A model generated the notes under the pieces. The model saw nothing but the letters and a program-made list of their open reading frames with translations, was not told where the DNA came from and searched no databases. 64,000 nt of DNA from Actinomycetota bacterium (GTDB lineage Bacteria > Actinomycetota > AC-67). A program made the translations under genes and the position numbers. Positions 2,169 to 21,748 of this stretch are shown here, one piece after another (positions within the stretch are counted from its first letter, which is position 1; each line of letters starts with the position of its first letter). Where the stretch lies: contig JBKKBZ010000116.1 of assembly GCA_046713235.1 (NCBI GenBank), forward strand, positions 2,742 to 66,741, written 5' to 3'.

Positions 2169-2984
2169 GTGCCGATGAACGACGGCGCGGAAGGACGCGG
2201 ACGCCATCTCTTTGTTGCCGGCGTGCTGGCGGTCGCCGCTTTGATCGGATTGCTGGCCGGCAAGGCCGCCCTCGCCGTCGTGACCGCGGGGGCAGCGATC
2301 CTCGGTGCGCGTGAGGTCTTCGACCGGCAGCGCCTTCGCGGGCTGCGCCCTGTTCCGCTTGTCGGCGTCGGTGCCATAGTTGGTCTTTTCGGGATTGCGC
2401 TGGCCACGGGAGAGGACGCACCACGTGTCTTCCCCTTCGTAGTTGCCTCGGCGACGGTCGCGTGTTTCGGAGCGATCATGTTGCGTAAGCGAATTGCCGG
2501 CGCGACCGAATCGATCGTGACGACGCTGCTGCTCGTCGTCGTGCTTGGAATGCTGGGAGCATACGTGGTCGTGGTGCGCGGTCTGCCGCTGGGTGTGCGA
2601 TTCGCGGCGGGGCTCCTGTCGATGGTGGCGGCGACCCAAGGCGGGAGTGCTGCCTATGCCGCATGGCGCCGCCGACGCGCCGGAAGTCATGCTCTGGCCC
2701 GCCCCGCGTGGGAGACGCGGGTTGCAGGTGCCGTAGGGTGCTTCGCCGTAGCTATGGTCGACGTCGTCGTTTTCGCGCCGGCCTTTGATCGCGGTAGGGC
2801 GCTGTTTCTCGCGGCAATCGTCATCATCTTCGTGCCACTCGGCGAGCTGTGGGTTTGGATGTTCCGGCAAGACCTCGCCGCCGAGGGTGAGCCGCTTCCA
2901 GAATTCCCCATCCTTGCGCGCGTTGCACCGGTGCTAACGGCCGCGGCCCCGTTCTTCTACGCGGTTCGAGCCCTGATCCGCTAG
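2169..2984 (+). CDS. Polytopic membrane protein, unknown function
   Basis: 271-aa ORF with multiple hydrophobic segments. Divergent from the glnR-like gene. Confidence 0.5.
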   Translation: MPMNDGAEGRGRHLFVAGVLAVAALIGLLAGKAALAVVTAGAAILGAREVFDRQRLRGLRPVPLVGVGAIVGLFGIALATGEDAPRVFPFVVASATVACFGAIMLRKRIAGATESIVTTLLLVVVLGMLGAYVVVVRGLPLGVRFAAGLLSMVAATQGGSAAYAAWRRRRAGSHALARPAWETRVAGAVGCFAVAMVDVVVFAPAFDRGRALFLAAIVIIFVPLGELWVWMFRQDLAAEGEPLPEFPILARVAPVLTAAAPFFYAVRALIR

Positions 2985-3745
2985 TGGGTCTGCTCGAGGC
3001 GCTCGTCCTTCGGCGGGTTACGCTAGCGCTCGTGCGCATGGTGCGGCGGCTCGTGGTGTTCCTGGTCCTCCTGGCCGGTCTAGGCCTCGTGGCCGGCGCG
3101 GCGCTTCAGCCGTTTGCCGAGCGCAAGATCGGCGAGACGATTCAGAAATCACTCGAGCTCGAGACACCACCGACGGTCCGCCTCGACGCCTTTCCCATCC
3201 TGGTACGTGCAGCGCAGGGCCGTGTTGCGGGCCTGACCGTTGATGGACGCAATCTCGTCGTTCAACGTCTCCGGCTCGCGCGGTATCACGTCGATGTCGT
3301 CGGTGTGGCCATCTCTTACTCCGCCCTGCTCACGGGAAATCCGCGCGCACGCGTGCAGGGTGGTGAAGCGTCGGCTCTTGTCACGCAGGAAGCCGTGAAC
3401 GCCTATCTTGCCGCGCGCAAGGAGACGGCGCGGGTGACCTTTGGAAAGGGCACGGTTCGCGTCCGAGATCGCGCGCGCTATCTCGGATCCGTTCGCAACC
3501 TCGAGGCGGTGGGACGGTTCTCGATCGATGGCCGGGATCTCGTGTTCGTCGCCGACCGCGTGACGATCGACGGCAAACCGCCCCCCGGAGCGCTGGCCGA
3601 GCGGGCAAAGCGGGACGCCGGCTTCCGCCAGCCGCTTCCGGCTCTCTTCGGGGGAATTCGCGCACGACGAATCACCGTCGAGCCGACGGGCGCCGAGCTC
3701 GTCGCCGAATTCGGTGCAACGACGATCGATCTGGGCGCCGCTTAG
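2984..3745 (+). CDS. DUF2993 (LmeA-like) family membrane-anchored protein
   Basis: N-terminal TM helix followed by a soluble domain typical of actinobacterial DUF2993. Start overlaps the upstream stop. Confidence 0.5.
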   Translation: MGLLEALVLRRVTLALVRMVRRLVVFLVLLAGLGLVAGAALQPFAERKIGETIQKSLELETPPTVRLDAFPILVRAAQGRVAGLTVDGRNLVVQRLRLARYHVDVVGVAISYSALLTGNPRARVQGGEASALVTQEAVNAYLAARKETARVTFGKGTVRVRDRARYLGSVRNLEAVGRFSIDGRDLVFVADRVTIDGKPPPGALAERAKRDAGFRQPLPALFGGIRARRITVEPTGAELVAEFGATTIDLGAA

Positions 3746-3750
3746 CGCTG

Positions 3751-5034
3751 CTAGGTGCGATAGCGTCGGAACTCGGGGACGAGGACCGCCAGAAGCATCG
3801 CGCCGGCGATACAGGCGACTCCCCCTGAGACGACGGAGGCGGTGGGCCCGAAGGCTTCGGCGACGAGTCCCGCCTCCAGATCGCCGAGCCTGGGACCGCC
3901 GGTGACAACCAAAATGTGGACGCCGGAAAGGCGCCCGCGCAAGGAGTCCGGAACGGAGGACTGGAGAATCGTCCCGCGAAACACCGCGGAGATGACGTCG
4001 GCGGCACCGGCGCCGGCGAGCAGGATCAGGGCGGCCGGCAAGTTTGAACCGACGAGTCCAAACGCGGTGATCCCCGCGCCCCAAATCGCCACCGCGATCA
4101 GCACCGCGAGACCTTGCCGGCGTATGCGTCCCACCCAACCGGCGGTGAGCGCACCGACCAGAGCCCCGGCGGCAATCGCGGAGAACAGCGCGCCGACGAC
4201 CTCCGGGCCGCGCCGGAACTGCGTCACCGCCAAGAGCGGAAACAACGCTCGCGGCATCCCGAAGATCATCGCGACGAGATCAACCGTGAAGGTCGACTGC
4301 AGCACGGGCCTGCCCTTGAGAAAACGAAATGCCTCGAGCACGGCACGGGGTCCGGAGGCAACGATGCTCGAAGCATCGCTCCGCGGTGTATGCGGGCGCA
4401 TGGCCATGGCGGCGCCGATCGTCGCGGCATACGTGAGGAGATCTACGGCGTATACCCACGCGAGTCCGGCGCGTGCGATGACGACCCCCGCGATCGCCGG
4501 CCCGACGACCATCGACGCGCTCCACATCGCCTGATTGAGCGCGATCGCCGACGGCAGCAATTCGCGCGGCACGAGGTTCGCCGTCAACGACGACCGGGTG
4601 GGCTGAGCGATTCCCGACAGGGCCGCAGACAATGCAACGGCCCCGTAGATCAGGCCGAGGGGCGGCCGGCCGGCCAGCGCGGCGAGAAGGAGCGCGGCCG
4701 ACGTCGCCGCGAGGCCTACCTGAGAGATCAGCAGTAGCTTCCGGCGGTCGGATCTGTCGACCAGCGGTCCGCCGCCGATCGTGGCAAGGATCAGCGGCAC
4801 GAGTTGCACGAGACCCACCAAGCCAACGGCTGCGGCCGACCCGGTGAGACGGAACACTTGATAGAAGACCGCGACGACCGTCATCTGATGTCCCGATGCG
4901 GATACGATCTCCCCGAACCACAGCAGGCGGTAGTCGCGCGACACGCGCAAGGGTGTGATATCGACGGCGACGAGTCGCGCGCGCTTTCGAAGGCGAGAAG
5001 CGAATCCGGGTTCGGTTGGGTCGCGCTCGTCCAC
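3751..5034 (-). CDS. MFS transporter
   Basis: 427 aa with about 12 TM segments and MFS-like signature regions. Confidence 0.75.
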   Translation of the reverse strand: MDERDPTEPGFASRLRKRARLVAVDITPLRVSRDYRLLWFGEIVSASGHQMTVVAVFYQVFRLTGSAAAVGLVGLVQLVPLILATIGGGPLVDRSDRRKLLLISQVGLAATSAALLLAALAGRPPLGLIYGAVALSAALSGIAQPTRSSLTANLVPRELLPSAIALNQAMWSASMVVGPAIAGVVIARAGLAWVYAVDLLTYAATIGAAMAMRPHTPRSDASSIVASGPRAVLEAFRFLKGRPVLQSTFTVDLVAMIFGMPRALFPLLAVTQFRRGPEVVGALFSAIAAGALVGALTAGWVGRIRRQGLAVLIAVAIWGAGITAFGLVGSNLPAALILLAGAGAADVISAVFRGTILQSSVPDSLRGRLSGVHILVVTGGPRLGDLEAGLVAEAFGPTASVVSGGVACIAGAMLLAVLVPEFRRYRT

Positions 5035-5088
5035 TCCTGCTTAGCCTAGCCCCGAACGTCCCGTCAATGATTCGGTAATAGTTGGGGT

Positions 5089-5649
5089 TCAGACGGGAGA
5101 GGACGCCGGGCTGATCATCAGCTTGCCGTGGAACTCGAGGGGCTCCATCGGGTCGATGACTTCGGAGATTGCGGCGGTCGTCACGATCTTCTGAATTCCC
5201 TTGGAGAAGCGATTGCGGTAGGTGCGAGACGTGCACCCAGCCGAGACTCCGACCGGGTTGTGCGGGGCCGGCGGCATAACAAGCTCGAGGGGACCGACGC
5301 CGTCTTCAGGCGCAAGGCCGGTGAGATACTGGCAGGTCGCCCCGAAGATCAAGCGCCCGAGCGGGTCGAACCACGAGACCGAAACGTACCCTCCTGGGAT
5401 GACCGGCATGGCGACGTGGAAGTTCGCGTGGGACTCGACGAGAGATACGTACCCCGCCCGCGTGAGGGTGAACTGCCCAACGCAATCGCCGTACCAGCCT
5501 CCATCGCCGGTCGGCGTGGTCATCCCGGAGCACTCGCCCGGAACGGCTCCCGTCGCCAGAAGCTCGTGCACGGTGGCCCGGCCCGAACCGGGGACGGCCG
5601 TCCCCAGGGCAAGCGCAAGCATGAGTATGAAAAGTCTCGATCGGCCCAT
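5089..5649 (-). CDS. Secreted hypothetical protein (signal peptide, 4 Cys)
   Basis: N-terminal signal peptide MGRSRLFILMLALALGTAVPGSG. No recognisable domain. Confidence 0.45.
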   Translation of the reverse strand: MGRSRLFILMLALALGTAVPGSGRATVHELLATGAVPGECSGMTTPTGDGGWYGDCVGQFTLTRAGYVSLVESHANFHVAMPVIPGGYVSVSWFDPLGRLIFGATCQYLTGLAPEDGVGPLELVMPPAPHNPVGVSAGCTSRTYRNRFSKGIQKIVTTAAISEVIDPMEPLEFHGKLMISPASSPV

Positions 5650-5864
5650 ATGCAGATCCCCTCAAATATTGGAGGTTCGACATTGGCTCATTGATCTCCT
5701 TCCCGGCGGACACGGGGGATCCGGCACAATGCCGCCTCGCCCGGTAGCGCGAGGTCCCTACCGGGCGCCGGGGCTTTCCGGCCCTGCTGAGGACTCCCCC
5801 AAAGGGGCTCCGAACACGCACGAGCGCGGGGCGATTGACCCCGCGCGCGCCCGTGCGACTGTTT

Positions 5865-6008
5865 CTACGGGTTGGGAGCGGCTTCCTCCCAGCCCGACTC
5901 CTCACCCGCGCGGCCACGCTTCTTCTTCATGAAGAAGAACACACCACCGACGATTGCCAGCAGCGCGGCAAGCAGGCCCTTCTTCGAGCGCTTCTTCTCT
6001 TCGGCCAT
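5865..6008 (-). CDS. Small (47 aa) single-TM protein with lysine-rich flanks
   Basis: Internal ATG at 6008 gives MAEEKKRSKKGLLAALLAIVGGVFFFMKKKRGRAGEESGWEEAAPNP. A GC hairpin lies downstream at about 5822-5848. Confidence 0.3.
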   Translation of the reverse strand: MAEEKKRSKKGLLAALLAIVGGVFFFMKKKRGRAGEESGWEEAAPNP

Positions 6009-6235
6009 ACGGACCCCTCCCAATAGACGGGACGGGAGCATCATAACGATCGCGCACGACACCCGACAATGCCCAGCCCGAAATCTGTCCGGATGGACAT
6101 GACCGTTTCGGGCTTGGAGAGTAGATATTTCGGCCCAGGAGGGGCAGGCGGGCCACCGGCTTCGCCTCTTGCTCGTCGCGGCGCTCATGGTCGGAGGGGG
6201 CGCCGATCCAGGACTGCCGGCGACTTAGGCCGACG

Positions 6236-7150
6236 TCATGGATCTTCTCGCGCCGTGCGGGTTGAGCGGATCACTCCGAAGTAGACGCCTACGAGCACGA
6301 GGATCGAGCCGACGACGAACGTGCCGGTGGTCTGCTCGTCCAGCAGCCAGGCCGCAAGCGCGATGCCAACCAGTGGCGCGAGCACGAACTCATAGGAGGC
6401 GGCGCTCGCCGACCATCTGCTGAGCACGAACAGATACAGCCCGAACACGCCCACCGTGCCGATGGTGACGAGGTAGGCCTGCGCTGCCCAGGTCGAACCT
6501 TCCTCGGGGATCTTGAAAGACTGGCCGAACAGCGGCATCAGTACGAAAAGCATCACGGTCGCCACGGCGAGGCCGATCGCATTCCTCGCCGCCGGATGCA
6601 CGGGAGGGAAGCCCTTCACAGCGATCGCGCCCTCAGCCGCACACGCCGCGGCCGCGAGGACTGCCAGCAATGATGCGACGGGCACACCTTCGTCGACGCC
6701 TCCGCGGAGGACGACCACCGTTCCCACCACGACGATCGCCGCGCCCGCAAGGCTGTCCCAGCGGAATCGCTCCTGGCCATGGGCAAGCGCAAAGATGAAC
6801 GTGAGCAATGGTCCCGTCGCCAGCAGCATGCCCGCCATCCCGGCGGGGACCTCTTGCAATCCCAAGTAGATGAATCCAAAGAAGGCGCCGAGCGAGAGTG
6901 CTCCGTACAACAGCGCGCCCACAAGTGCGCGCCCTCGCGGCATCGACGCACGAAGCACGCGCGCGACGATCGCGAAGATCACCGTGGCGATCAGGAAGCG
7001 CGACGCAGCCGCCCACAGAGGATCGATCCCCGGCTCGCGCAGTATGAGCTTGACGGCGACGACGTTACCGCCGATCCCGATCACCATGAGGAAGAACGCG
7101 CCAAGGACGGCCCGATCGGGCCGCTTGCCGGCCTCCTGCGCTTCCACCAC
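6236..7150 (-). CDS. EamA/DMT-superfamily transporter
   Basis: 304 aa with 10 TM segments and a duplicated EamA-like architecture. Confidence 0.75.
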   Translation of the reverse strand: MVEAQEAGKRPDRAVLGAFFLMVIGIGGNVVAVKLILREPGIDPLWAAASRFLIATVIFAIVARVLRASMPRGRALVGALLYGALSLGAFFGFIYLGLQEVPAGMAGMLLATGPLLTFIFALAHGQERFRWDSLAGAAIVVVGTVVVLRGGVDEGVPVASLLAVLAAAACAAEGAIAVKGFPPVHPAARNAIGLAVATVMLFVLMPLFGQSFKIPEEGSTWAAQAYLVTIGTVGVFGLYLFVLSRWSASAASYEFVLAPLVGIALAAWLLDEQTTGTFVVGSILVLVGVYFGVIRSTRTAREDP

Positions 7151-7252
7151 GTGCGACTTTATCGACAGCGCCCGATAGCATGCGTTGATGCCTCAGCGGT
7201 GTCGAAGACGCCATGCGGTCCGACCCGGCGTCAGGTTCGAACATTGTCAATC

Positions 7253-7329
<77 letters not shown>

Positions 7330-7350
7330 GCGGCCGGACAGGCTACCACT

Positions 7351-7713
7351 TCAGCCCTTTTCCGACACCGAGATCTCGATGCCGCCGACCACGTCGGCGA
7401 TGAGGTTGTAGAGAAACACGCCGCAGACGGTGATGATCGTCCAGACCACGGTCCCGAGGGCCCCGATGAGGAAGAACCACTTGAAGATCGCTCCGCCGGA
7501 GACCGTCACGGGATAATCCACGTCGGCGAACAACTGCTCGATGTCGGCGATGACCCCGAAGGCTTTCAGCATCGCGAAGATGATGGCCGAGCCGAGCAGA
7601 AAGACGAGGAGCAAGCAAAAGTAAAACAGGAGGGAGAACTTGAGGACCGACCACGGGTCGATCTTGCGGACGACGAGGCGAGCGCGGCGCCAGCCGCGAG
7701 GCGCAGCGGACAT
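7351..7713 (-). CDS. DUF3566 transmembrane protein (Rv0007-like)
   Basis: N-terminus RRARLVVRKIDPWSVLKFSLLF plus 2 TM segments. Position after gyrA matches Mycobacterium. Confidence 0.7.
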   Translation of the reverse strand: MSAAPRGWRRARLVVRKIDPWSVLKFSLLFYFCLLLVFLLGSAIIFAMLKAFGVIADIEQLFADVDYPVTVSGGAIFKWFFLIGALGTVVWTIITVCGVFLYNLIADVVGGIEISVSEKG

Positions 7714-7727
7714 CGTCTGGCCGGTCG

Positions 7728-9164
7728 CTATCCCTTGACGACCGCCAGAGGGCGCAGGCGCGCCACTCTCCTCGATAACTTCGCCCCCTCGCAGGTCTCC
7801 ACCACCGCGGACACATCCTTATACGCGGCCGGCGCCTCCTCCGCCAGCAGGCCCCATTGTGTCGCATTCACCAGCACACCGGCCGCAGCGAGGTCGGCCG
7901 CGAGCTGTCGGCCGCTGACCTGCTTCTTGGCTTGCGTGCGGCTCATCATTCGGCCGGCGCCGTGGCAGGTGGAGGAAAACGCCCGAGCGCCCTCGGCGAC
8001 ACCGGCCAGCACGTAAGAGGCCGTGCCCATCGAGCCCGGGATGAGCACCGGCTGTCCGGCCTCACGAAACGCATCTGCCAGCTCCGGGTGGCCGGGGCCG
8101 AACGCCCGCGTGGCGCCCTTGCGGTGAACGCAGAGAAGCCGCTCGCGCCCATCCACGTCGTGCCGTTCCAGCTTGGCAAGGTTATGCGAGACGTCGTACA
8201 CGAGCCGAAGGCCGAGATCCTCGGCACTCCGGCCGAAAACGGTCTCGAAGCACCGGCGAACCTCGTGTGCCAGAAGGTGCCTGTTCGCCCGGGCGAAATT
8301 CGCCGCCGCGGACATCGCCGACAGATACCGCTCACCTTCCGGCGTTCCCACCGGGGCACACGCGAGCTGCCGATCCGGGACGGTGATCTTGTATGCGGCC
8401 ATCGCCCGGTCGAACTTACGGACCTCGTCGGTGCAGACTTGGTGGCCGAGTCCTCGGGATCCGCAGTGCATCATCACCGTGATCGTCCCGGGCTCGAGGT
8501 CGAAGGCCGCAGCGGCGCGCTCGTCGAAGATTTCCTCGATCGCCTGGATCTCGAGGAAATGATTGCCGGCACCGAGCGATCCGAGCTGCGTCGCGCCGCG
8601 CTCGCGTGCCCGATCGCTTACCGCGTCGGGATCCGCTTCGAGGCGGCCCCCGTCCTCGCACCGCTCCACGTCCGAGGGCCAGCCGACACCGCGCTCGAGC
8701 AGCGCAACCACTCCGTCGGTGAGCACGTCCCGCATCTGGGCACCGTCGAGCTTCATGAGACCGTCGCGGCCCGTCCCCCGGGGTATGCGGCGCGCCAGCT
8801 CGTCGATCAGACGCTGCATCGCCGGCGCTGCTTCGGCGAGCAAGAGGTCGCTTCGCAACAGTCGCACACCGCAACAGATGTCGAATCCGACGCCCCCCGG
8901 TGTGACGACGCCGCCATTCTCGACGTCGGTCGCCGCAACCCCGCCGACGGGGAAGCCATAGCCCCAATGCACGTCGGGCATCGCGAACGAAGCGCGAACG
9001 ATGCCGGGAAGCATCGCCACGTTGGCCACCTGATCGAGGGCTCGATCCTCTTTCGCCTTTACCAATAACCCCTCGCTGGCAAAGACGTGGCCCGGCACGA
9101 CCATACCCGCCCGGGCGCCCACCGGGATCTGCCATTCGTACGGTCCGAGGCGGAGCAGGTCCAT
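7728..9164 (-). CDS. rtcB: RNA-splicing ligase RtcB
   Basis: Motifs DVHWGYGFPVGG, NHFLEIQ and C-terminal STCHGAGRMMSR. Start taken at the second Met (9164); an upstream ATG at 9203 would overlap archease by 31 nt. Confidence 0.85.
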   Translation of the reverse strand: MDLLRLGPYEWQIPVGARAGMVVPGHVFASEGLLVKAKEDRALDQVANVAMLPGIVRASFAMPDVHWGYGFPVGGVAATDVENGGVVTPGGVGFDICCGVRLLRSDLLLAEAAPAMQRLIDELARRIPRGTGRDGLMKLDGAQMRDVLTDGVVALLERGVGWPSDVERCEDGGRLEADPDAVSDRARERGATQLGSLGAGNHFLEIQAIEEIFDERAAAAFDLEPGTITVMMHCGSRGLGHQVCTDEVRKFDRAMAAYKITVPDRQLACAPVGTPEGERYLSAMSAAANFARANRHLLAHEVRRCFETVFGRSAEDLGLRLVYDVSHNLAKLERHDVDGRERLLCVHRKGATRAFGPGHPELADAFREAGQPVLIPGSMGTASYVLAGVAEGARAFSSTCHGAGRMMSRTQAKKQVSGRQLAADLAAAGVLVNATQWGLLAEEAPAAYKDVSAVVETCEGAKLSRRVARLRPLAVVKG

Positions 9165-9172
9165 CGGGGCCT

Positions 9173-9577
9173 CTACACGTCGACGTAGACCCGAGCCATC
9201 CATTCGGACCTAGTCTTGGACACGGTCAAGCCGTGATAAGTGACCGCCTTGATCATGGGGCCGGCCGGCTCGGAGTCGATAACCACATAGACGTCCCCCT
9301 CCGCACGAGTCGGCGACACCTGCCGGAGGTCGGCGCCTACCACAAGCTCGCCTCGGGTCTCGAAGCGGTACAGGCACTCCTCCAGGAACTGGACGAGGGT
9401 GTCCTCAAGGTCGGACCCCTCGACCAGGATCGCCCGGGCGTCGTCGGAATCGTCGGGCTCGTCGTCGAGGATGATCGCCGCAAGGGCGCGAGCCGCGTCG
9501 GCGAACAGGACGGGAAGCTCGGGCGCACGCACCTCGATTCCCACGTCCGCCGTGTGGGGGATGATCTCGTACGGCAT
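9173..9577 (-). CDS. Archease (RtcB activator)
   Basis: MPYEIIPHTADVGIEV... N-terminal archease signature, 134 aa, immediately upstream of rtcB. Confidence 0.75.
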   Translation of the reverse strand: MPYEIIPHTADVGIEVRAPELPVLFADAARALAAIILDDEPDDSDDARAILVEGSDLEDTLVQFLEECLYRFETRGELVVGADLRQVSPTRAEGDVYVVIDSEPAGPMIKAVTYHGLTVSKTRSEWMARVYVDV

Positions 9578-9581
9578 CCTG

Positions 9582-12032
9582 CTACTCCGCCTCTACCTCC
9601 GCGATCACCGGGGCCATCGCCGAGATCTGCTGATCCTTGTCGAGGCGCATAACCCGGACCCCCTGAGTGTCCCGCCCCATCCGGGAGATGTCCTTGCAGG
9701 CCATTCGGATCACTACCCCGCTGGAAGAGATGAGGAAGACCTCGTGACCGGGCCGGACGACCATGGCGCCGCGGATCTGGCCGCGACGGGAGGTCAACCG
9801 CGCAGTCTTGACACCCTTACCTCCTCGCCGCTGGCGCGGATAGTGGGTCAGCATCGTGCGCTTGCCGAAGCCGGACTCGGTGACGATGAGTAGCTCCCCA
9901 TTCGGGTCCACGACGTCGAAGGCGACCAATTCGTCGTTGCCTCCAACCCGCATCCCGATGACCCCGGTTGCGGTGCGACCCATCGGCCGGACGTCGTTCT
10001 CGTCGAACGTGATCGAATAGCCGCCTCTCGAGACCATGATGAGCTCGTCCTCGCCCGTCGTCGCGCGAACCTGAACGACTTCGTCGTCTGCGCGCAGGTT
10101 GACGGCGATGATGCCGTCGCGGCGCGAAGAGTCGTACGCCGAGAACAGGGTCTTCTTGATCACGCCGCGTTTCGTCGCGATGACGAGATACTTACGCGTC
10201 GCGTAGTCGCGGGTATCGATCACCGCGGCGATCGACTCGTCCCCGGCCAGAGGAAGCAGGTTGCGCAGGCTGATCCCGCGTGCGGTGCGGTCCTTCTCAG
10301 GGATCTCGTGCGCCTTGATGCGGTAGACCTTGCCGCGATTCGAGAAGAACAGCACGTAGGAAAGGTTTGTCGTCGTCAGCATCTGGCCGACGATGTCTCC
10401 TTCCTTGGGCTTCGCGCCGCGTATCCCCTTGCCACCCCGTCCTTGGGTCCGGAAGACGTTCGACAGCACGCGTTTGATGTACCCGGACCGCGTGATGGTA
10501 ACGACGACGTCGTCGTCGGCGATCAAATCCTCGACGTCGATATCGCCCTCATCGCTGCCGATCTGGGTGCGGCGCTTGTCGGCGTGGCGGGACCGGATCT
10601 CGCCCAGCTCGTCCTTGATGATGCCGCGAATGCGCATCGGATCGGCGAGGATCGCTTTGTATTCGGCGATCTTCGCCGACAGCTCTGCGTGCTCCTCCTC
10701 GATCTTCTGGCGCTCGAGCGCCGCCAGCCGGCGCAACTGCATGTCCAGGATTGCATTCGCCTGGATCTCGCTCAGACTGAACCGTTCCATCAGGGCGGTC
10801 CGCGCCTGATCCGCGTTCGCCGAGGCGCGGATGAGCGCGATGACGGCATCGAGGTTCTGCAGCGCCACCAGCAGCCCTTCGAGGATGTGCGCACGTTCCT
10901 CGGCCTTGCGCAAGCGGAAGCGCGTCCTGCGCGTGACGACGTCGATCTGATGAGCGATGTACGGTGCCAGCACTTGAGGAAGCGACAGCGTCCGCGGGAC
11001 GCCGTCGACGAGCGCGAGGCAGTTCACGCCGAACGAGTCCTGCAGCTGCGTGTGCTTGTAGAGGTTGTTCAGCACGACTTGTGGAATGGAGTCCCGCTTC
11101 AGCTCGATGACGAGCCGCAGACCCTGCCGGTTCGACTCGTTTTTCAATGCCTTGGCCGTCGCAGGGATGCCGGTTATGACCTTCTTCTCGATCAACTCGG
11201 CGATCTTGGCAAGGACCCGATCGCCGGACACCGTGTACGGCAGCTCGGTGACGATGATGCGCTGCTTGCCCGACGCCGTCTCCTCGATCACGGCTTTGCC
11301 GCGAACCTTGACCGAGCCGCGGCCGGTGGTGAACGCATCCTTGATGCTTTCGCGCCCCATGATGATGCCGCCGGTCGGAAAGTCCGGGCCCTTGACGTAC
11401 TTCATCAGTCCGGCAACGGTGATCTCGGGATCGTCGATCATCGCGATCGTGGCGTCGATGACCTCTCCAAGATTGTGCGGCGGAATGTTCGTCGCCATAC
11501 CGACCGCGATCCCGCTGGATCCGTTCACGAGCAGATTGGGAAACCGCGCCGGCAGCGGCATCGGCTCGACCTCTTCGCCGTCGTAGTTGGGCAGGAAGTC
11601 GACGGTCTCTTCATCGATGTCGCGAAGCAGCTCCATCGCAAGCCAGGTAAGCCGGCATTCGCTGTACCGCATCGCCGCCGGCGGATCGCCGTCGACGGAT
11701 CCGAAGTTTCCATGCCCCTGGATCAGCGGTGCGCGCATCGAGAAGTCCTGCGCCATCCGAACCAGCGCATCGTAGATCGCTGTGTCGCCGTGGGGATGGT
11801 ACCGACCCATCACGTCACCGACCACGCGGGCCGACTTCTTAAATGGGCGGTCCGGCCGGATGCCCTGCTCGTTCATGCCGTAGAGAATCCGTCGGTGTAC
11901 CGGCTTCAAACCGTCGCGCACATCGGGCAGCGCGCGTCCGACGATGACCGACATCGCGTAGTCGAGGTAGGAACGCTTGACCTCCTCTTCGATATCGATC
12001 GGTTCGATGTTGGGCTCGAGCGGAAGTGTCAT
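9582..12032 (-). CDS. gyrA: DNA gyrase subunit A
   Basis: [27 protein letters not shown] and the rest of the 816-aa length are GyrA-like. Confidence 0.97.
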
Positions 12033-12036
12033 CGGC

Positions 12037-13953
12037 TCAGATGTCCACGAACGCGTCCTTCGCGTTCCGCTGGATGAACTCCCGGCGAGACTCCACGTCC
12101 TCGCCCATGAGCACGGTGAAGATCTGGTCGGCCACGGCGGCGTCGTCGAGCGTCACCTGGAGGAGCCGCCGTGTCTCCGGGTTCATCGTGGTATCCCACA
12201 GCTCTTCCGCGTTCATCTCGCCGAGACCCTTGAACCTCTGGATCGGAACCTTCTTGTTCGCCGGCGCCCCGGCGAGCACCTCGTCGCGCTGCCGGTCGCT
12301 GAAGGCGTAGCGCTTCTTTCCCTCGATCACGAGCCGGTAGAGCGGCGGCTGCGCGACGTAGACGTGTCCGGTTTCGACCAGCAAACGCATGTGCCGGAAG
12401 AAAAAGGTCAGCAGAAGCGTGCGGATGTGTGCGCCGTCGACATCGGCGTCGGTGAGGATCACGACCTTCCCGTAGCGCAGCTTCGACACGTCCGACTCCT
12501 CCCCGATGCCTGCCCCGATCGCGGAGATGAGTGCGAGGATCTCGTTGTTCTCCAGGACCTTGTGGAGACGGGCCTTCTCAACGTTGAGGATCTTTCCTCG
12601 GATGGGAAGGATCGCCTGAGTCTCCCGGTTTCGGGCCTGCTTGGCGCTCCCGCCCGCCGAGTCTCCCTCGACAATGAAGACCTCGCACGCATCGGGGTCG
12701 TTCGATGAGCAGTCGGCGAGCTTGCCGGGCAGACCCCCAGCATCGAACGCACTCTTCCGCGCGATGTCGCGCGCCTTCTTTGCGGCGAGCCGGGCGCGGG
12801 CGGCCTGCGTGGCCTTCGCGACCACGCGGCGTCCTTCGGTCGGATGCTCCTCGAACCACTCCGCCAGCCGCGCGTTCAGCGTCCGCTCGACGAACGCGCG
12901 GATCTCGGTGTTGCCGAGCTTGGTCTTGGTCTGTCCCTCGAATTGCGGCTCTCGAAGCTTTATCGACACGATCGCAACGAGGCCCTCACGAATGTCCTCG
13001 CCTTGAAGGTTCTCTTCCTTTTCCTTCAGCAGACCCTTGGCCCGGGCGTAGCGGTTCACGACGTTCGTGAGCGACTTCTTGAAGCCCTCCTCGTGCATTC
13101 CACCTTCGTGGGTGTTGATCGTGTTCGCGAAGGTGTAGATGGAGTCGTTGAAGCCGGCGTTCCACTGGAGCGCCATCTCGATCTCGCGCTCCTCCTCGGC
13201 GGCCTCGAAATAGATGATCTTGTTGAGGGTCTCGCGGCCGGCGCTCAGCGCCTTCACCATGTCTGCGATGCCGCCGGTGAAGCGATAGGTCTGCTCGTTC
13301 TTCGGGTGGGTTCGCTCGTCGGTGAGGGTGATCGACACACCCTTGGTCAGGTAGGCGAGCTCCTTGAGCCGTTGCTGAAGCACGTCGAACTTGAACTCGA
13401 GGTCCTCGAAGACCTGCGGATCGGGCCAGAAGTCGACCGTGGTCCCCGACTTCTGCGATGGTTTACCGCGCTCGAGCTTGGAGGTCGCCTTCCCTCTCGC
13501 GTAGCTTTGCTTCCAGGTGAAACCCTCGCGGTGGACCGTGACCTCGAGGCGCTCGGAGAGGGCGTTCACCACGGAGACACCCACCCCGTGGAGACCTCCG
13601 GAGACCGCATAACCCTTGCCGTCGAACTTTCCGCCGGCATGGAGCACCGTGAGCACAACCTCGAGCGCCGGACGCTTGTCCTTGCGGCCGGGGATCGGCT
13701 GGACGGGGATCCCTGCGCCGTTGTCGGTCACGCGGACTCCCCCGTCGGCCATGAGGACGGCGTCGATCTTGTCGCACCGGCCGGCCAGCGCTTCGTCGAT
13801 CGCGTTGTCGACAACCTCGTAGACCAGGTGATGGAGTCCCCGCGGACCGGTGGAGCCGATGTACATTCCGGGCCTGCGGCGAACCGCTTCGAGCCCCTCC
13901 AGAACCTGGATTTCGCTCGACGTGTAGCTCGTAACCGGCTTGGCCAAGCTCAA
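12037..13953 (-). CDS. gyrB: DNA gyrase subunit B
   Basis: GHKL ATPase and TOPRIM motifs ([26 protein letters not shown]), 638 aa. Confidence 0.97.
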
Positions 13954-14130
13954 CTCCTCCAGGGCGTGCCGAAGCCCCGGGGAAGGGGCTCGGGGGGCCG
14001 GATCGGGCGACCGTTTCGAAGACCAATTCTAGCACGTCAGAGGCCTTTTTCGGCACCTCGGAGGCGCCGGTTTCGCCTCCTTCGGAGCATGTCCGACGAG
14101 CCGGACCTCACCTCCGCGGCCGGCTCCCCC

Positions 14131-14475
14131 TCATTCCTGTCTGGCCCGGCCTACGACGGCCCGCACCCGAGTCACCGATCCGGGCGGTAAGACGCCCGCG
14201 ACCCGCTCCAGCAAGGTTGCAGAAAGCAGCGTGAGCTCGGTGGCCCACGTGGGATTCTCGGCGCGAACGAAGAGCTCGCCGTCGACGAGCTTCACCGGTT
14301 CGCATCGGGCCGCGACGGTGGCCCCTACGATCTCCGCCCACCGCGCGGCAAGCTTGCCCAGAGCAAGCCGCTCCGACCAGCCGGGCCGATGACTGAGGTC
14401 CTCAATCAGCTCACCGAGACGCCGCGGGTCCTTGCGCCGCGGGTCCGTGTTGCCGTCATCACGCCGCATCGACAC
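14131..14475 (-). CDS. dciA: DUF721/DciA-like protein (helicase-loader family, Rv0004-like)
   Basis: 114 aa. Lies between recF and gyrB as in Mycobacterium. The DUF721 call rests on gene order and family sequence pattern; no specific motif was identified. Confidence 0.6.
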   Translation of the reverse strand: MSMRRDDGNTDPRRKDPRRLGELIEDLSHRPGWSERLALGKLAARWAEIVGATVAARCEPVKLVDGELFVRAENPTWATELTLLSATLLERVAGVLPPGSVTRVRAVVGRARQE

Positions 14476-15562
14476 GTCCCTCGCCGACGTGGAAGACCTT
14501 GGCTTCGAGCGAATCGGGAACCGCCCCCGGATCGGCCGCCGTGATGATGGCTTGCGCTCCGTCGGGCAGGGCGGCGGCCACTCGCTCGCGCCGCGCCGGG
14601 TCGAGCGGCTCGAGGGCGTCGTCGAGAAGCAGGACCGGCTCGTCCCCGCCCGTCGCTTCCCTCACCGAACTCCACGCCGCGAGCGCGAGCGCGAGCGTCA
14701 CCACCCACGCCTCTCCCTGCGACGCATGGGTCCGTGCCGGCAGGCCGTCGATCCCGAAAGCGACGTCGTCGCGATGAGGCCCCACCAGCGTCATCGCGCG
14801 GATGATCTCGTCCGATCGGCGCTCCTCAATGCGCGCGAGCATCGCCGCTGCCCAAGCTGCTGCGTCTGTTCCCACCCCGGGATGAGGAATGTTCGGACGA
14901 TAGGCGATCTCGAGCAGCCCGCGTCCCGCCACCGCCGCCCAGGCCGCGGCGGCGTGCGGCGCCAGCGCGCGGATGGCGGCTTCGCGCCTCGCCGAGATCT
15001 CTCCGCCGGAGGCCGAGAGCTGCGCGTCCCAGACCTCGATCCCGTCGGGCCTGCGCCCGGCCGACTCCCGTAGCAACGCGTTGCGCTGTCTAAGCGCGCG
15101 TTCGTAATCGCGGAGCACCCCGGCCAGCCGCGGCGTCACTTGCACGAGGATCTCATCGAGGAAGCGCCGGCGCTCGAGCGGATCTCCCCGAACGACCTCG
15201 ACCCGCTCCGGCGCAAAGAGACATGCACGAAGCACGCCGAGAACCTCGCGCTTGCGCCGAAGCGGCTCCCCGTCTAGCCGAACCCGGGACGCCCCCTGAG
15301 AACGGATCTCTACCTCGACCACCTGCTGCCTCACGTCGCGCTGCGTGTGAGCCCGAACGACGGCGCTCACACGGGACCGCTGGATGAGCGCCGGATCGGG
15401 GGCCCGGTGCGAGCCGAGAGTCGCGGCGTACCACGCTGCCTCAACGATTGAGGTTTTACCCGACGCGTTCGGTCCGACCAGTGCCACGCGTCCGGACGGG
15501 ATCGCGAGATCGAGTCCTTCCCAGCACCGGAACCCGTTCAGCTCGAGACGAGCGAGCCGCAC
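14459..15562 (-). CDS. recF: DNA replication/repair protein RecF
   Basis: Walker A GPNASGKTS and an SMC-like N-terminus (LELNGFRCWEGLDL). Confidence 0.9.
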   Translation of the reverse strand: MRLARLELNGFRCWEGLDLAIPSGRVALVGPNASGKTSIVEAAWYAATLGSHRAPDPALIQRSRVSAVVRAHTQRDVRQQVVEVEIRSQGASRVRLDGEPLRRKREVLGVLRACLFAPERVEVVRGDPLERRRFLDEILVQVTPRLAGVLRDYERALRQRNALLRESAGRRPDGIEVWDAQLSASGGEISARREAAIRALAPHAAAAWAAVAGRGLLEIAYRPNIPHPGVGTDAAAWAAAMLARIEERRSDEIIRAMTLVGPHRDDVAFGIDGLPARTHASQGEAWVVTLALALAAWSSVREATGGDEPVLLLDDALEPLDPARRERVAAALPDGAQAIITAADPGAVPDSLEAKVFHVGEGRVDAA

Positions 15563-15570
15563 CCCGCCCT

Positions 15571-16662
15571 CTAGGAAAGGCGTACCGGCATCAGTAGGTA
15601 CTGGAAACCGTCGTCCTGCGCGCCACGTAGCAGCGCCGGCTTTAGGCCGTCGCGCACCGACAAGATCAGCTCTGGTCCCTCGACCGCAGCGATCCCGTCG
15701 CTGAGATACCCCGGGTTGAACGCCACGGTCAGCGCTTCTCCCTCGAAAGTCGCGGCCACGTGCTCCGAAGCCTCTCCAAGATCTTGCGTCCCCGACGTCA
15801 GGCGCACACCTTCGGGCGAGAGATCGAGACGGACGGGCGCACCCTGCTGCGCGAGAATACCGACGCGCCTCACCGACTCGGCGAATGCTTCGCGCTCGAG
15901 ACGAAGGACATTGGGCTGGGCGTCTGGAACCAGTTGCCTCCAGTTCGGAAACTCACCCTCGATCAGACGAGTGGTGAGCCTGCGGGTGCCGGCCTCGACC
16001 CCGGCCTGCGTCGTCCCGAGCGCCAGTCGTACCTCGCTTTCATTGTCGGCGGCGCGCGCCGCTTCGCTCAAGGCGCGCCCCGGCACGACCCGGCGGAGCT
16101 CCTCGTCCGGCCCCGACCACGTGAGTGATCGCACGGCAAGCCGGTAGCTGTCGGTCGCCACCAAGGTAAGGGCGGAAGGACCGGCCTCCAGCAGGACGCC
16201 GGTCAAGATCGGCCGAGCTTCGTCGCGCGAAGCCGCCCGAGCCACCTGACTCACCGCGGAGAGGAAGAGCTTGGCGTCCAGTACACCGGTGTGGCCTTGG
16301 TCGGGAGCGCCGAGCGCAGGGAAATCGTCTGCAGGAAGGACGCGGAGCGTGAACTCCGCGGCACCTCCGACTATGCGAGCTTGAGACGCGTCGGTTTCGA
16401 GGAGAACTCCTCCTTCGGGAAGAGCGCGCACGATCTCGCCGAGCAGACGCCCCGGAAGCACGGCCCGGCCCGGCTGCTCTACCTGCCCCTCGATCTCCGC
16501 CCGGCCGGCGACCTCAAGGTCCGTGCCGGCGAACACGACTTTTCCTTCCCCTGCCTCGATGAGAACCCCGCCGAGCACCGGGAGCGTCGCCTTGCTTCCG
16601 ACCGATCGAAGAACCCATAAAACGACGTCGGCGATCTGGTCACGCTCGATCCGGATCTTCAC
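15571..16662 (-). CDS. dnaN: DNA polymerase III beta sliding clamp
   Basis: 363 aa with the three-domain clamp pattern. Sits downstream of dnaA. Confidence 0.9.
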   Translation of the reverse strand: MKIRIERDQIADVVLWVLRSVGSKATLPVLGGVLIEAGEGKVVFAGTDLEVAGRAEIEGQVEQPGRAVLPGRLLGEIVRALPEGGVLLETDASQARIVGGAAEFTLRVLPADDFPALGAPDQGHTGVLDAKLFLSAVSQVARAASRDEARPILTGVLLEAGPSALTLVATDSYRLAVRSLTWSGPDEELRRVVPGRALSEAARAADNESEVRLALGTTQAGVEAGTRRLTTRLIEGEFPNWRQLVPDAQPNVLRLEREAFAESVRRVGILAQQGAPVRLDLSPEGVRLTSGTQDLGEASEHVAATFEGEALTVAFNPGYLSDGIAAVEGPELILSVRDGLKPALLRGAQDDGFQYLLMPVRLS

Positions 16663-16848
16663 GGTTTCACACCTCCAGGGAGAATCGTACTTCGCGGCTG
16701 TGACAGAACCTTATCCACCCGATCTGTATCCAGGCTTTTAAAGGAATAATTCTGTAGTAACAGTCGTAGGGGCTGGGGACGCTGTGGAGAATGCCACGCC
16801 TTTGGGGAATTCGGCCGTCCCCCGCTGTGCACGGTGTCGTGGATGACA
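16663..16848. promoter_or_regulatory. Candidate oriC (dnaA-dnaN intergenic region)
   Basis: DnaA-box-like 9-mers: TTATCCACC (16711-19), TGTGGAGAA which is the reverse complement of TTCTCCACA (about 16784-92), and TCGTGGATGACA (about 16837-48). An AT-rich stretch (cttttaaaggaataattctgtagtaacag, about 16735-16765) stands out against the high-GC background. Confidence 0.6.
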
Positions 16849-18225
16849 TCAGGCCGATTCCACCTGCTGCGCGGTTCTTCTTCGGATTCTCGCCGTCAAC
16901 TCTTGGACCTGTGAATAGATTTGGCGGTGCTCGCCCATCAGCTTTCGGATCTTGCCATCGGCGTGCAAAACCGTGGTGTGGTCTCGTCCGCCGAAGATCT
17001 CGCCTAGCTTCGGAAGGGACAGCGGGGTCAGCTCCCGGCACAGGTACATGGCCACCTGCCGGGCCAGTACGATCGGGCGCTGGCGCGACGGACCCAGGAG
17101 ATCGCCGCGCGAGATGCCGAAGAACGAAACGCATTCCGCGATAACGACGTCGGGCCGGATCTCGCTGGCGCCCTCGGGAGCCAGCAGCGGGTTGAGAGCC
17201 TCTCGTGCCAGCTCCAGCGTCAGCGGCAGTCTCGACAGGGAGGACCACGATACGACCCGGATGAGCCGGCCCTCGAGCTCACGGATGTTGTTTTGCACGC
17301 GAGTCCCGATGAACTCGAGGACGTCATCGGGAACCTCGAAGCCTTCCGCCCGGGCCTTATTGTGGAGAATCGCCACCCGGGTTTCGAGATCAGGGGGCTG
17401 AACATCGGTGATAAGACCCCATTCGAAGCGGGTGCGCAGGCGATCCTCCAGCGAGGCGATGGCGCTCGGTGGCCGGTCGGAAGAGATGACTATCTGCCGG
17501 CCGTCGTTGTAGAGGGCGTTGAAGGTATGAAAGAACTCCTCTTGGGTGCGCTCACCGGTTGCCAGGAACTGGATATCGTCTACGAGCAGCACGTCGGTCT
17601 CGCGGTAACGCCGGCGGAACGCCGGCATCTTCTCCTCCCGCACGCCGCTGATGAACTCGTTCATGAATTGCTCGCTCGACACGTACCGCACGACCGCGGT
17701 CGGGTAGAGCGAACGGACGCAGTGTCCAATCGCGTGAAGCAAGTGGGTCTTTCCTAGACCGGCTCCCCCATAGATGAAGAGCGGGTTGTACGACCGGGCC
17801 GGTTGCTCGGCGACCGCCAGTGCCGCCGCGTGGGCGAACCGGTTCGAGGGACCGATCACGAACGTGTCGAAGCTGTATTTCGGAATGAGCTGCGAAGCTT
17901 CGGCGGCCGCGCGCAGTGGTGCCGGTACCGGGTCGGCCGGAGCGTCGAGGTCGAACACCTCCGGGGGCGCCGGCCGTGCGTCGACCGTGACCGATAGAGA
18001 AAGCGGCCTCTCCGCGGCAGCCTGCAGAGCCTCCGTGACTAGGCCTGCGTATCTTGTCTCCAGCCACTCCTTGGCGAACGCACTCGGGACTCCGAGGACG
18101 ATTTCGTCCCCGGAGAGGCTGAGCGGCCGGCTTCCTTCGATCCAGGTCTTGGCGCCGGGTGAGGGCAAGCGGTCACGCAGCGTCGCAAGGGTCCTCTGCC
18201 AAATTACGTCAAGTTCGTCGCCCAC
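16849..18225 (-). CDS. dnaA: Chromosomal replication initiator DnaA
   Basis: AAA+ Walker [12 protein letters not shown] and a domain IV HTH. Start chosen as GTG at 18225, preceded by AGGGAGG. The in-frame ATG at 18399 would add a non-DnaA-like N-terminus. Confidence 0.88.
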
Positions 18226-18234
18226 GGGCCTCCC

Positions 18235-18266
18235 TGGTCCACAATGGTTATCCACGGTTGTGCAAA
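18235..18266. promoter_or_regulatory. DnaA-box cluster upstream of dnaA
   Basis: TGGTCCACA (18235-43), TTATCCACG (18248-56) and TTGTGCAAA directly upstream of the dnaA start. A further TTTCCACAG lies at 18384-92. Confidence 0.5.
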
Positions 18267-18501
18267 ACCCTGGGGAAGGATTCACGCGTAGACAAACAGC
18301 AACTTCGCGAGGCCGAGGGAAGGAAGGGCTTGCCCAGTCGCCGACGCTCATCGGCGGACGAGCGGGCGCGAAGATACCATCGGTTTCCACAGACCTCAAG
18401 AGCGGGAAAGCGCCTCACTTTTGCCCCTCTCTAACGGTGACGAGAGGCGCCGATCGGCACGGTTGCGCCCCCACAGGCCGACCCGTAGACTGCGGACTTC
18501 G

Positions 18502-18636
18502 ATGAAGCGCACCTATCAGCCACACGTTCGGCGGCGGAAGCGCACGCACGGGTTCCGTGCACGTATGAAGACGCGCGCCGGCCGCGCCGTGCTTGCTCGC
18601 CGCCGGCGCAAGGGTCGCGCCGAGCTGACCGTGTGA
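18502..18636 (+). CDS. rpmH: 50S ribosomal protein L34
   Basis: [42 protein letters not shown]. Confidence 0.9.
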
Positions 18637-18995
18637 CCCGGGCTCCCCGCCCGACCATGAAGCGAGCGAACCGCCTCAGGGCGCCCAGCGAGTTCGCGCA
18701 TGTCTACAGCACCGGACGACGCATTCAAGGCGACGGCGTTGCTGCCACCATCGCTTTCTCCCAGGAGCGGGCGCCCCGCGTGGCCGTCACTTGCGCGCGG
18801 CGGTTCGGGACCGGCGTGGCCCGCAACCGGGCAAAGCGACGTCTGCGCGCCGCTATCGCCCCGCTGATCCCGCGCCTGCGGCCGGGATCCGAGACCATTC
18901 TTCAGGCAACCCCTGCGGTGCTCTCCATGAGTTTCCAGGTACTGCACTGGGAGATCATGGAAGTCCTTCGAAAGGGCCAGGTCCTGGATGCTTAG
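18633..18995 (+). CDS. rnpA: RNase P protein component
   Basis: [21 protein letters not shown]...[11 protein letters not shown]. Overlaps the rpmH stop by 4 nt. Confidence 0.8.
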
Positions 18996-19221
18996 GGCCC
19001 TCGCCATCGGGGTTCTCCGGCTCTACCAGGTAACCGCCGGGCGGGTGACCGCCGGGCACTGCCGGTTCCATCCCACGTGCTCGGAGTACGCCCTTCAGGC
19101 GGTGCGATCAGGTGGAGTCGTCCGCGGCATTTTCCTGGCCTCGTGGCGGATCCTTCGTTGCGGGCCGTGGAACCGGGGCGGCGTCGACTACCCGCCGCAT
19201 TCGGCGCGGTCCCATGGCTGA
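18988..19221 (+). CDS. yidD: Membrane protein insertion efficiency factor YidD
   Basis: LYQVTAGRVTAGHCRFHPTCSEYALQAV signature. Confidence 0.8.
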   Translation: MLRALAIGVLRLYQVTAGRVTAGHCRFHPTCSEYALQAVRSGGVVRGIFLASWRILRCGPWNRGGVDYPPHSARSHG

Positions 19222-20359: not shown

Positions 20360-21082
20360 GTGCGAGAGGCGGTCGAGACCGAGGGGCGTACGGTCGAGGA
20401 AGCCATCGACGCGGCGCTGGATCTCCTCGGAGCGACCGATGACGAGGTCGAGATCAAGGTCCTCGCCGAGGGAGGCACCTGGCGGGGCAATGAGATCGCG
20501 CCGGCGCGAGTCCGGGTCGGTTTTCGCGATGAGCTCAGTCCCCAGGAGCGAGCCGAGCGAGAAGAGCGCGTGCGGGAGGAGCCTCTAGATCCGGCGCTCG
20601 GGGAAGAGATCCGCCGACAGGCCGAGGTTTGCCGTGATTTCCTGGTGGGGCTGCTCGAAAAGATGGATATCGAGGCCGAAGTTACCGCGTCGACCGGCCG
20701 GGACGGGGTGGAGTTGGAGATCGAGGCAGACGGGGACGACGGGGCGCTGCTCATAGGCCGGCACGGCCTGACCCTCGATGCGCTCCAGCTGCTTACGCGG
20801 GCTCAATCCTCACGCAGCGGTGGGCCTCGATTGCCGATATCCCTCGAGATCGCCGGATATCGAGCGCGCAGGAGGGCTTCTCTGCACCATCAGGCCGGGC
20901 GCGCTGCGGAGCGCGCCCGTCGGACGGGACGTAGCATTGCCTTGGCCCCCATGACCCCTCTTGAGCGCAAGGTCGTCCACGAGGCGATTGCCGAGCTCGG
21001 GGGCGTGCGATCCCGCAGCGAAGGGGAAGCCCTCGATCGACATGTGGTGATCGAGTGGGACCAATCGCATTCCAACGGTTAG
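20360..21082 (+). CDS. Jag/KhpB-like RNA-binding protein (Jag_N, KH, R3H)
   Basis: GTG start. C-terminal R3H motif PMTPLERKVVHEAIAELGGVRSRSEG. Position after yidC is conserved. Confidence 0.75.
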   Translation: MREAVETEGRTVEEAIDAALDLLGATDDEVEIKVLAEGGTWRGNEIAPARVRVGFRDELSPQERAEREERVREEPLDPALGEEIRRQAEVCRDFLVGLLEKMDIEAEVTASTGRDGVELEIEADGDDGALLIGRHGLTLDALQLLTRAQSSRSGGPRLPISLEIAGYRARRRASLHHQAGRAAERARRTGRSIALAPMTPLERKVVHEAIAELGGVRSRSEGEALDRHVVIEWDQSHSNG

Positions 21083-21096
21083 TTTCACGGGAAACA
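21081..21096. promoter_or_regulatory. parS-like site (AGTTTCACGGGAAACA)
   Basis: 14 of 16 match to the TGTTTCACGTGAAACA consensus. Sits at the jag/rsmG junction, where origin-proximal parS sites typically lie. Confidence 0.4.
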
Positions 21097-21704: not shown

Positions 21705-21748
21705 TCCAGTTTTTGCCAGATAGTAAAGCCTACAAACCAGGATAACCG

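Follow-up and report, generated by a model that had tools for sequence, protein, structure and literature searches.

In actinobacteria, the gene encoding the DUF3566 membrane protein (cofA) is usually located directly 3' of the gyrase genes and 5' of tRNA genes (Sher 2020, PMC7205459), and in Corynebacterineae the DUF3566 family corresponds to CofA, a PBP1a cofactor (PMC7205459). In the DNA analyzed here (64,000 nt from an Actinomycetota bacterium, contig JBKKBZ010000116.1; hereafter, the window), two further genes, encoding archease and the RNA ligase RtcB, are found between gyrA and cofA. This raises the question of how an RNA-repair pair came to be located within the gyrase locus, and whether its position there carries any function. 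We postulate, with a probability of roughly 0.75, that the two genes encode an archease-dependent RtcB RNA ligase, which would be expressed constitutively with gyrBA and would have been gained once, ancestrally, in an uncultured group of Actinomycetota. The locus would thus represent an RNA-repair ligase pair of a routine kind, whose position is unusual but inherited.

Gene order and spacing behind gyrA

The interval 7728-9577 extends exactly from the rtcB stop codon to the archease start codon on the minus strand. It belongs to a tight block of same-strand genes, whose order (gyrB, gyrA, archease, rtcB, DUF3566/cofA, tRNA-Ile) was read from the sequence and which comprises the following features:

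12037-13953, minus strand: gyrB (Pfam HATPase_c, DNA_gyraseB, Toprim and DNA_gyraseB_C), the first gene of the block
9582-12032, minus strand: gyrA (Pfam DNA_topoisoIV, E 8e-162, and six GyrA C-terminal repeats)
9173-9577, minus strand: archease, 134 aa (PF01951, E 6e-29, full length)
7728-9164, minus strand: rtcB, 478 aa (PF01139, E 1e-168, full length)
7351-7713, minus strand: gene for a DUF3566/CofA-like membrane protein, 120 aa (PF12089, E 9e-23)
7253-7329, minus strand: tRNA-Ile(GAT) (ARAGORN; Rfam RF00005, 73.8 bits), the end of the conserved block

The genes are separated by 4 nt (gyrB-gyrA), 4 nt (gyrA-archease), 8 nt (archease-rtcB), 14 nt (rtcB-DUF3566) and 21 nt (DUF3566-tRNA-Ile). 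A sequence-only reading of the window had described this tight same-strand packing correctly, including the 8-nt gap between archease and rtcB; the gap after gyrA, given there as 5 nt, is 4 nt. The same reading named gyrA-DUF3566-tRNA-Ile as the order of Mycobacterium-type chromosomes; gyrA-DUF3566-tRNA is indeed the usual actinobacterial junction, in agreement with Sher 2020 (PMC7205459) and with those of the control loci described below that carry DUF3566, in which it comes after gyrA. The DUF3566 product of the window scores 81.3 bits against PF12089 (cut-off 22.2 bits), and its gene has the placement of cofA, 5' of a tRNA gene and 3' of gyrase, although archease and rtcB intervene after gyrA. 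Compared with the published gyrB-gyrA-cofA(DUF3566)-tRNA junction, the flanking genes, their order and their orientation are alike, while the window and the related uncultured lineage differ in having archease and rtcB between gyrA and cofA.

The archease and RtcB proteins

Both gene calls are confirmed by hidden Markov model matches that are full length and far above threshold. RtcB scores 562.4 bits against PF01139 (cut-off 27; profile positions 1-426 of 426) and aligns end to end with Pyrococcus horikoshii RtcB (1uc2, E 3e-160), the most similar protein among solved structures, and with Thermus thermophilus TTHA1785 (E 2e-154). Its residues Asp95, Cys98, Asn201, His202, His233, His327 and His401 are all kept, being aligned and identical with P. 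horikoshii D95, C98, N202, H203, H234, H329 and H404; His404 is the histidine that becomes guanylylated, and His401 is its equivalent in the window protein. Against NCBIfam NF007153, which describes the shorter E. coli-type RtcB, the protein reaches only 192.6 bits, below the 407-bit cut-off, and judged from its sequence it appears to be of the long, archaeal/eukaryal-like type. The start that gives 478 aa agrees with the public annotation (NCBI-derived protein P0001) and with the lengths of the homologs, and a GAGG Shine-Dalgarno motif is located 6-9 nt 5' of the ATG at 9164. A 491-aa open reading frame (ORF) from 9203 was rejected, as it would overlap archease and receives no support from the homologs.

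Archease scores 101.5 bits against PF01951 (cut-off 25; profile positions 1-136 of 136). Its score against the NCBIfam equivalog NF001617 (71.7 bits) falls below the 126-bit cut-off; therefore, we regard it as a member of the family but not as a strict equivalog of that model. Among solved structures, it matches P. horikoshii archease (4n2p) best. The HTAD motif with His8 and Asp11, the KAVTYH motif with Lys110 and the Asp133-Val134 C-terminus are present; these residues correspond to P. horikoshii H9, D12, K117 and D141-I142, whose substitution abolishes RtcB activation (Desai 2014, PMC3973293). When eight gyrA-linked archeases were aligned, H8, K110 and D133 were invariant, and position 11 was occupied by Asp in seven of them and by Glu in one. 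A homology search with archease returned 29 matches; being limited by its word seeds, it gave no wider taxonomic view. Since the known required residues are all present in both proteins, archease and rtcB both look functional.

Archease is a cofactor that accelerates guanylylation and ligation by RtcB; the T. thermophilus enzyme requires it for multiple turnover, while Thermobifida fusca RtcB is archease-independent (Desai 2014, PMC3973293; Desai 2015, PMC4604427). By analogy with these systems, the window RtcB would use Mn2+ and GTP to guanylylate its own His401 and would pass the GMP to an RNA 3'-phosphate, a 2',3'-cyclic phosphate being opened first. The 5'-OH end would then attack the activated 3' end, and the break would be sealed, with archease speeding the guanylylation steps and enabling multiple turnovers. 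Likely substrates would be tRNA, rRNA or mRNA ends broken by ribonucleases or by chemical damage.

Among the characterized systems, the P. horikoshii "tRNA splicing operon" (Desai 2014, PMC3973293; 1uc2/4dwq, 4n2p) resembles the window locus in that archease and rtcB are adjacent on the same strand, and the active-site and activation residues of its two proteins are kept in those of the window. It is, however, a stand-alone operon, whereas the window pair is embedded in a gyrBA-cofA-tRNA block, and the host of the window is a bacterium, for which no requirement for protein-mediated tRNA splicing is known. T. thermophilus RtcB (TTHA1785, 2epg; Desai 2015, PMC4604427) is likewise a bacterial long-form RtcB paired with archease, though in a different genomic context; it is the characterized archease-dependent RtcB of bacteria and achieves multiple turnover only with archease, a dependence that the window protein may share.

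The sequence-only reading had taken the pairing of RtcB with archease for an archaeal or eukaryotic style of arrangement. Archease-rtcB operons have been published for diverse bacteria as well as archaea (Desai 2014, PMC3973293; Desai 2015, PMC4604427), and in our sample archease is located directly upstream of rtcB in 28 of the 62 distant RtcB loci whose upstream sequence is available. Hence, the pairing is not an archaeal or eukaryotic peculiarity, and the archease/RtcB pair itself is of a well-known kind.

Conservation in uncultured Actinomycetota

Relatives of the locus were found through the genomic contexts of RtcB homologs and a metagenome scan, together with a pattern-limited GyrA scan of genome contigs. 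An intact gyrA-archease-rtcB(-DUF3566) arrangement is present in nine independent loci from metagenomes or metagenome-assembled genomes (MAGs; L081, L083, L084, L086/87, L089, L090, L092, L094 and L095). The order in these relatives is (dnaA-dnaN-recF-dciA-)gyrB-gyrA-archease-rtcB-DUF3566(-tRNA-Ile-tRNA-Ala), tRNA-Ile being found after DUF3566 in L081, L084, L086, L089, L090, L092, L093, L095 and L001, and the dnaA-dnaN-recF-dciA-gyrB-gyrA part is extremely stable across all loci seen. GyrA is 85, 80, 77 and 55.5% identical to the window protein in L081, L083, L084 and L086, respectively, and RtcB is 76, 72, 68 and 64% identical in the same loci; the divergence of the two proteins is thus parallel.

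In a neighbor-joining GyrA tree, the arrangement-bearing Actinomycetota loci and L001 form one clade (87% of 200 bootstraps). In a single tree of this kind, the clade adjoins the sampled Actinomycetes, with Rubrobacteraceae outside, a placement that itself carries no bootstrap value. The RtcB proteins of the GyrA-clade loci also form one clade (78% bootstrap), and this clade joined by a few archease-rtcB loci without gyrA receives 100% support. The nearest relatives of RtcB come from bacteria of the Actinomycetota and not from archaea. Moreover, the composition of the two genes is native: the GC content at third codon positions (GC3) is 0.86 for archease and 0.81 for rtcB, compared with 0.84 for gyrA and 0.86 for gyrB, and codon usage correlates with that of the other window genes at 0.93 for rtcB and 0.86 for archease (the average for window genes of at least 300 aa is 0.91 +/- 0.06).

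In none of 79 more distant gyrA loci do the 10 kb that follow gyrA contain archease or rtcB. These control loci represent Actinomycetes (Frankia, Nocardia, Mycobacterium and Nonomuraea), Rubrobacteraceae, two Firmicutes and several unclassified Actinomycetota MAGs. Most Actinomycetes among them have DUF3566 after gyrA, which agrees with the position of cofA stated by Sher 2020 (PMC7205459). DUF3566 was found downstream of rtcB in none of 55 distant RtcB loci.

Loss, insertion and inversion within the clade

One close relative, the MAG locus L001 (GyrA 77% identical), was the only one obtained from the scan of the genome collection, and it is also the only close relative that does not carry the archease-rtcB pair; its gyrA is followed by about 230 nt and then by DUF3566 and tRNA-Ile. 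Within this spacer, positions 2494-2616 contain a 41-codon remnant of the rtcB 3' end (residues 438-478; 66% identity, E 2e-10), which ends in a stop codon, and L001 nests inside the GyrA subclade of the window in 100% of bootstraps. Given the remnant between gyrA and DUF3566 and this nesting, L001 has secondarily lost archease and most of rtcB and does not preserve an ancestrally empty site.

Other members of the clade show different changes. In L088 (176-7937), the gyrA C-terminus is followed by a frameshifted archease, about 7.3 kb of giant surface-protein genes (He_PIG/MBG_2/F5_F8) and then rtcB-DUF3566, while tRNA-Ile is located about 1.5 kb beyond DUF3566, past one extra ORF; the splitting of archease over two frames indicates a frameshift or an assembly error. 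L172 contains a 3.5-kb two-component system between gyrA and archease-rtcB-DUF3566; its genes (2172-5227) are read from the opposite strand and encode a GAF-histidine kinase and a GerE-type response regulator. In L093, archease-rtcB-DUF3566-tRNA-Ile is inverted relative to gyrA.

Taken together, the intact order in relatives, the parallel divergence, the remnant in L001 and the native composition point to one gain followed by vertical descent. The pair is neither a private nor a recent insert, and it seems to have been inherited vertically in a deep group of uncultured Actinomycetota. It would have entered once, at or before the base of this lineage, and later lineages would have experienced deletion, insertions or inversion. 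The sequence-only reading had regarded the pair as an insert, proposing synteny, RtcB phylogeny and codon usage as checks and naming an arrangement ancestral across the class as the finding that would speak against it. All three checks point away from a recent or private insert: the arrangement is lineage-wide, which comes close to being ancestral across the class, with nine further loci in a single GyrA clade (87%) and a remnant in L001; the nearest RtcB relatives belong to Actinomycetota (RtcB clade 78%); and the codon usage of archease and rtcB matches that of the window genes.

Transcription and regulation

A consensus promoter and terminator scan revealed neither a sigma-70-like promoter nor a convincing terminator from gyrB to the tRNA gene. 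Within rtcB, the terminator-like matches amount to weak stems of 5 bp; across the whole region, 10 such matches compare with 5.0 +/- 2.2 expected from shuffled sequences, i.e., modestly more than by chance. In the relatives, neighboring genes of the block overlap or almost abut; L086 has a 4-nt overlap between archease and rtcB and a 2-nt gap between rtcB and DUF3566. Apart from L171 and L172, archease is located at most 8 nt from rtcB or overlaps it. Intergenic distances of 4-14 nt, with no promoter or terminator predicted between the genes, fit a gyrBA transcription unit, and co-transcription of archease-rtcB with gyrBA is plausible from this spacing. The pair would then be expressed as the distal part of the origin-proximal gyrBA unit, followed by cofA and tRNA-Ile, so that its expression would be constitutive with gyrase and subject to origin-proximal dosage, and would not depend on an RtcR/sigma-54 stress switch.

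The absence of rtcA and rtcR noted in the sequence-only reading was corroborated among the neighboring genes: a Pfam scan of the predicted genes in 84-25440 found no RNA 3'-terminal phosphate cyclase (RTC), RtcA or RtcR-type/sigma-54 activator domain, the scan being not exhaustive in that it covered about 10 kb on each side and left out a candidate gene at 5222-5932 as well as short or low-GC3 ORFs. In this respect the window differs from the rtcBA and RtcR system of E. coli and Salmonella, which is sigma-54-dependent and stress-induced; the ligase chemistry and the presumed RNA-repair role are alike, but the window has neither rtcA nor rtcR among the scanned genes and shows no sign of a separate regulated promoter. 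It also has archease, which E. coli does not (Desai 2015, PMC4604427). Hence, in some bacteria RtcB may be part of a constitutive housekeeping operon near the origin, unlike the stress-induced RtcR circuit of E. coli and Salmonella.

Several observations weigh against the interpretation of a constitutive, singly gained pair. Actinobacterial promoters match the scanned sigma-70 consensus poorly, and the scan would miss a promoter located within the 3' part of gyrA. One RtcB of the clade (P0110, in L173) is located elsewhere, without gyrA or DUF3566; together with the insertions or inversion in L088, L172 and L093, this indicates that the linkage with gyrA is not obligatory. Furthermore, the trees are neighbor-joining trees built from limited taxa, with Acidimicrobiia, Thermoleophilia and Coriobacteriia left out, so that the depth and the name of the lineage can be given only provisionally.

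A second gyrA-rtcB linkage

The metagenome scan also yielded two distant RtcB loci with a similar arrangement, gyrB-gyrA-archease-rtcB in L124 and gyrB-gyrA-rtcB-serS in L149. A search for homologs of the L149 RtcB led to Candidatus Auribacterota, where all three further contexts (Candidatus Auribacter fodinae, Candidatus Ancaeobacter aquaticus and one 958-kb contig) have the order dciA-gyrB-gyrA-(archease)-rtcB(-serS). The Auribacterota gyrA-rtcB loci (L149, 4980-6437; L169, L170 and L171, 6001-7461) resemble the window in having rtcB immediately 3' of gyrA on the same strand within an origin-type block. They differ in belonging to another phylum, in their GC content (about 41-45%), in having serS in place of cofA and tRNA-Ile, and in that archease is often absent: it is present in L171 but missing from L149 and L169. 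L171, the locus of Candidatus Ancaeobacter, has no serS behind rtcB; a helicase gene and small ORFs take its place. The Auribacterota RtcB proteins form a clade (87% support) that is sister to the Actinomycetota clade in none of 100 bootstraps. Since the two RtcB lineages are not sisters, the gyrA-rtcB linkage arose at least twice.

The gyrA gene of L124 (671-4444) contains a LAGLIDADG homing-endonuclease intein at about residue 130, and in L170 a small GIY-YIG ORF is found on either side of rtcB (5527-5811, 94 aa; 7762-8049, 95 aa), in the interval from gyrA to serS; the two may be mobile nuclease genes.

Alternative explanations

The recurrence in a second phylum bears on the question of whether the position of rtcB is functional. 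RtcB, with or without archease, could be coupled to gyrase or DNA metabolism and could have been selected for this independently in at least two phyla, either because a relaxation-sensitive gyrBA promoter drives rtcB after damage, or because RtcB seals DNA 3'-phosphate/5'-OH ends near replication. Das, Chakravarty and Shuman reportedly observed in 2013 that RtcB seals such DNA ends in vitro. The gyrB-gyrA-(archease)-rtcB order of L124 and of the four Auribacterota loci, whose RtcB proteins never group as sisters of the Actinomycetota clade, would be in line with such a coupling, and so would the frequency of gyrA upstream of distant rtcB genes, which is low (2 of 33 loci with at least 3 kb of upstream sequence) yet far above that of a random gene position. 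A loosely related precedent is Deinococcus deserti, in which radiation induces both RtcB and GyrB more than 10-fold (PMC4007540). Nevertheless, we consider this explanation rather unlikely. Gyrase breaks carry 5'-phosphotyrosyl and 3'-OH ends, which are not substrates of RtcB; archease is dispensable in these loci, as L149 and L169 illustrate; L088, L093, L172 and L173 broke the adjacency yet kept rtcB; housekeeping genes often come to be located in origin-proximal operons; and no paper joining RtcB, gyrA and archease was found among those searched. A tie to gyrase or DNA topology is thus possible, given the recurrence, but chemically unobvious. The repeated linkage is the only point of the locus that is mildly novel, and the location of rtcB directly behind gyrA in two unrelated phyla may interest specialists in RtcB or gyrase. 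If selection rather than chance maintained it, coordinated control of DNA topology and of RNA/DNA end repair would be suggested, and the rtcB mRNA level would be predicted to rise upon gyrase inhibition.

It is still less probable that the adjacency is accidental, i.e., that the pair landed behind gyrA by chance in an ancestor, has its own promoter and has stayed there only owing to the rarity of rearrangements in the origin region. The 4- and 8-nt gaps and the overlaps in the relatives leave no non-coding room for such a promoter, and the independent recurrence in a second phylum would not be expected, even though the dnaA-to-gyrA order is extremely stable and some descendants broke the linkage without losing rtcB, as this explanation would have it. 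That an archaeal-type archease-rtcB cassette entered the gyrA-cofA junction recently, by horizontal transfer and in this lineage only, is largely refuted, for while the 79 control loci devoid of the pair and the long archaeal/eukaryal-like RtcB, with its nearest solved structure from P. horikoshii, would suit it, relatives with GyrA 55-85% identical share the arrangement, RtcB and GyrA diverged in parallel, composition and codon usage are native, L001 holds a deletion remnant and not an empty ancestral site, and the nearest RtcBs are those of Actinomycetota.

Archease and the gyrase inhibitor GyrI share the SHS2 fold. An action of archease on gyrase was rejected as the principal explanation, as the residues for RtcB activation are all kept, archease stays near or overlaps rtcB (with the exceptions of L171 and L172), and it is missing from some gyrA-rtcB loci.

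Neighboring genes of the origin region

The block belongs to a classic bacterial origin region, from which two gene sets diverge: rpmH, rnpA, yidD, yidC, jag, rsmG, parA and parB on the plus strand (18421-23475), and dnaA, dnaN, recF, dciA, gyrB and gyrA on the minus strand. The counts of DnaA-box consensus matches in the window are not above chance, and an Rfam scan of 5000-20000 yielded tRNA-Ile as the sole match. The genes rpmH (L34), rnpA and yidD are located within 18421-19221, a stretch of about 700 nt that separates dnaA from yidC; a 163-aa minus-strand ORF at 18516-19007 has no Pfam match, overlaps rnpA and is probably spurious. Near the block, the ORFs at 84-1433, 2028-2870, 5089-5649 and 5865-6188 have no Pfam match; the one reading from 5649 to 5089 encodes 186 aa with a signal-peptide-like N-terminus. 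Finally, tRNA-Ile (7253-7329) is followed in the window by an EamA transporter gene (7150 to 6236) and not by tRNA-Ala, unlike in most relatives (L084, L086, L088, L090, L092 and L095), where tRNA-Ala comes after tRNA-Ile.

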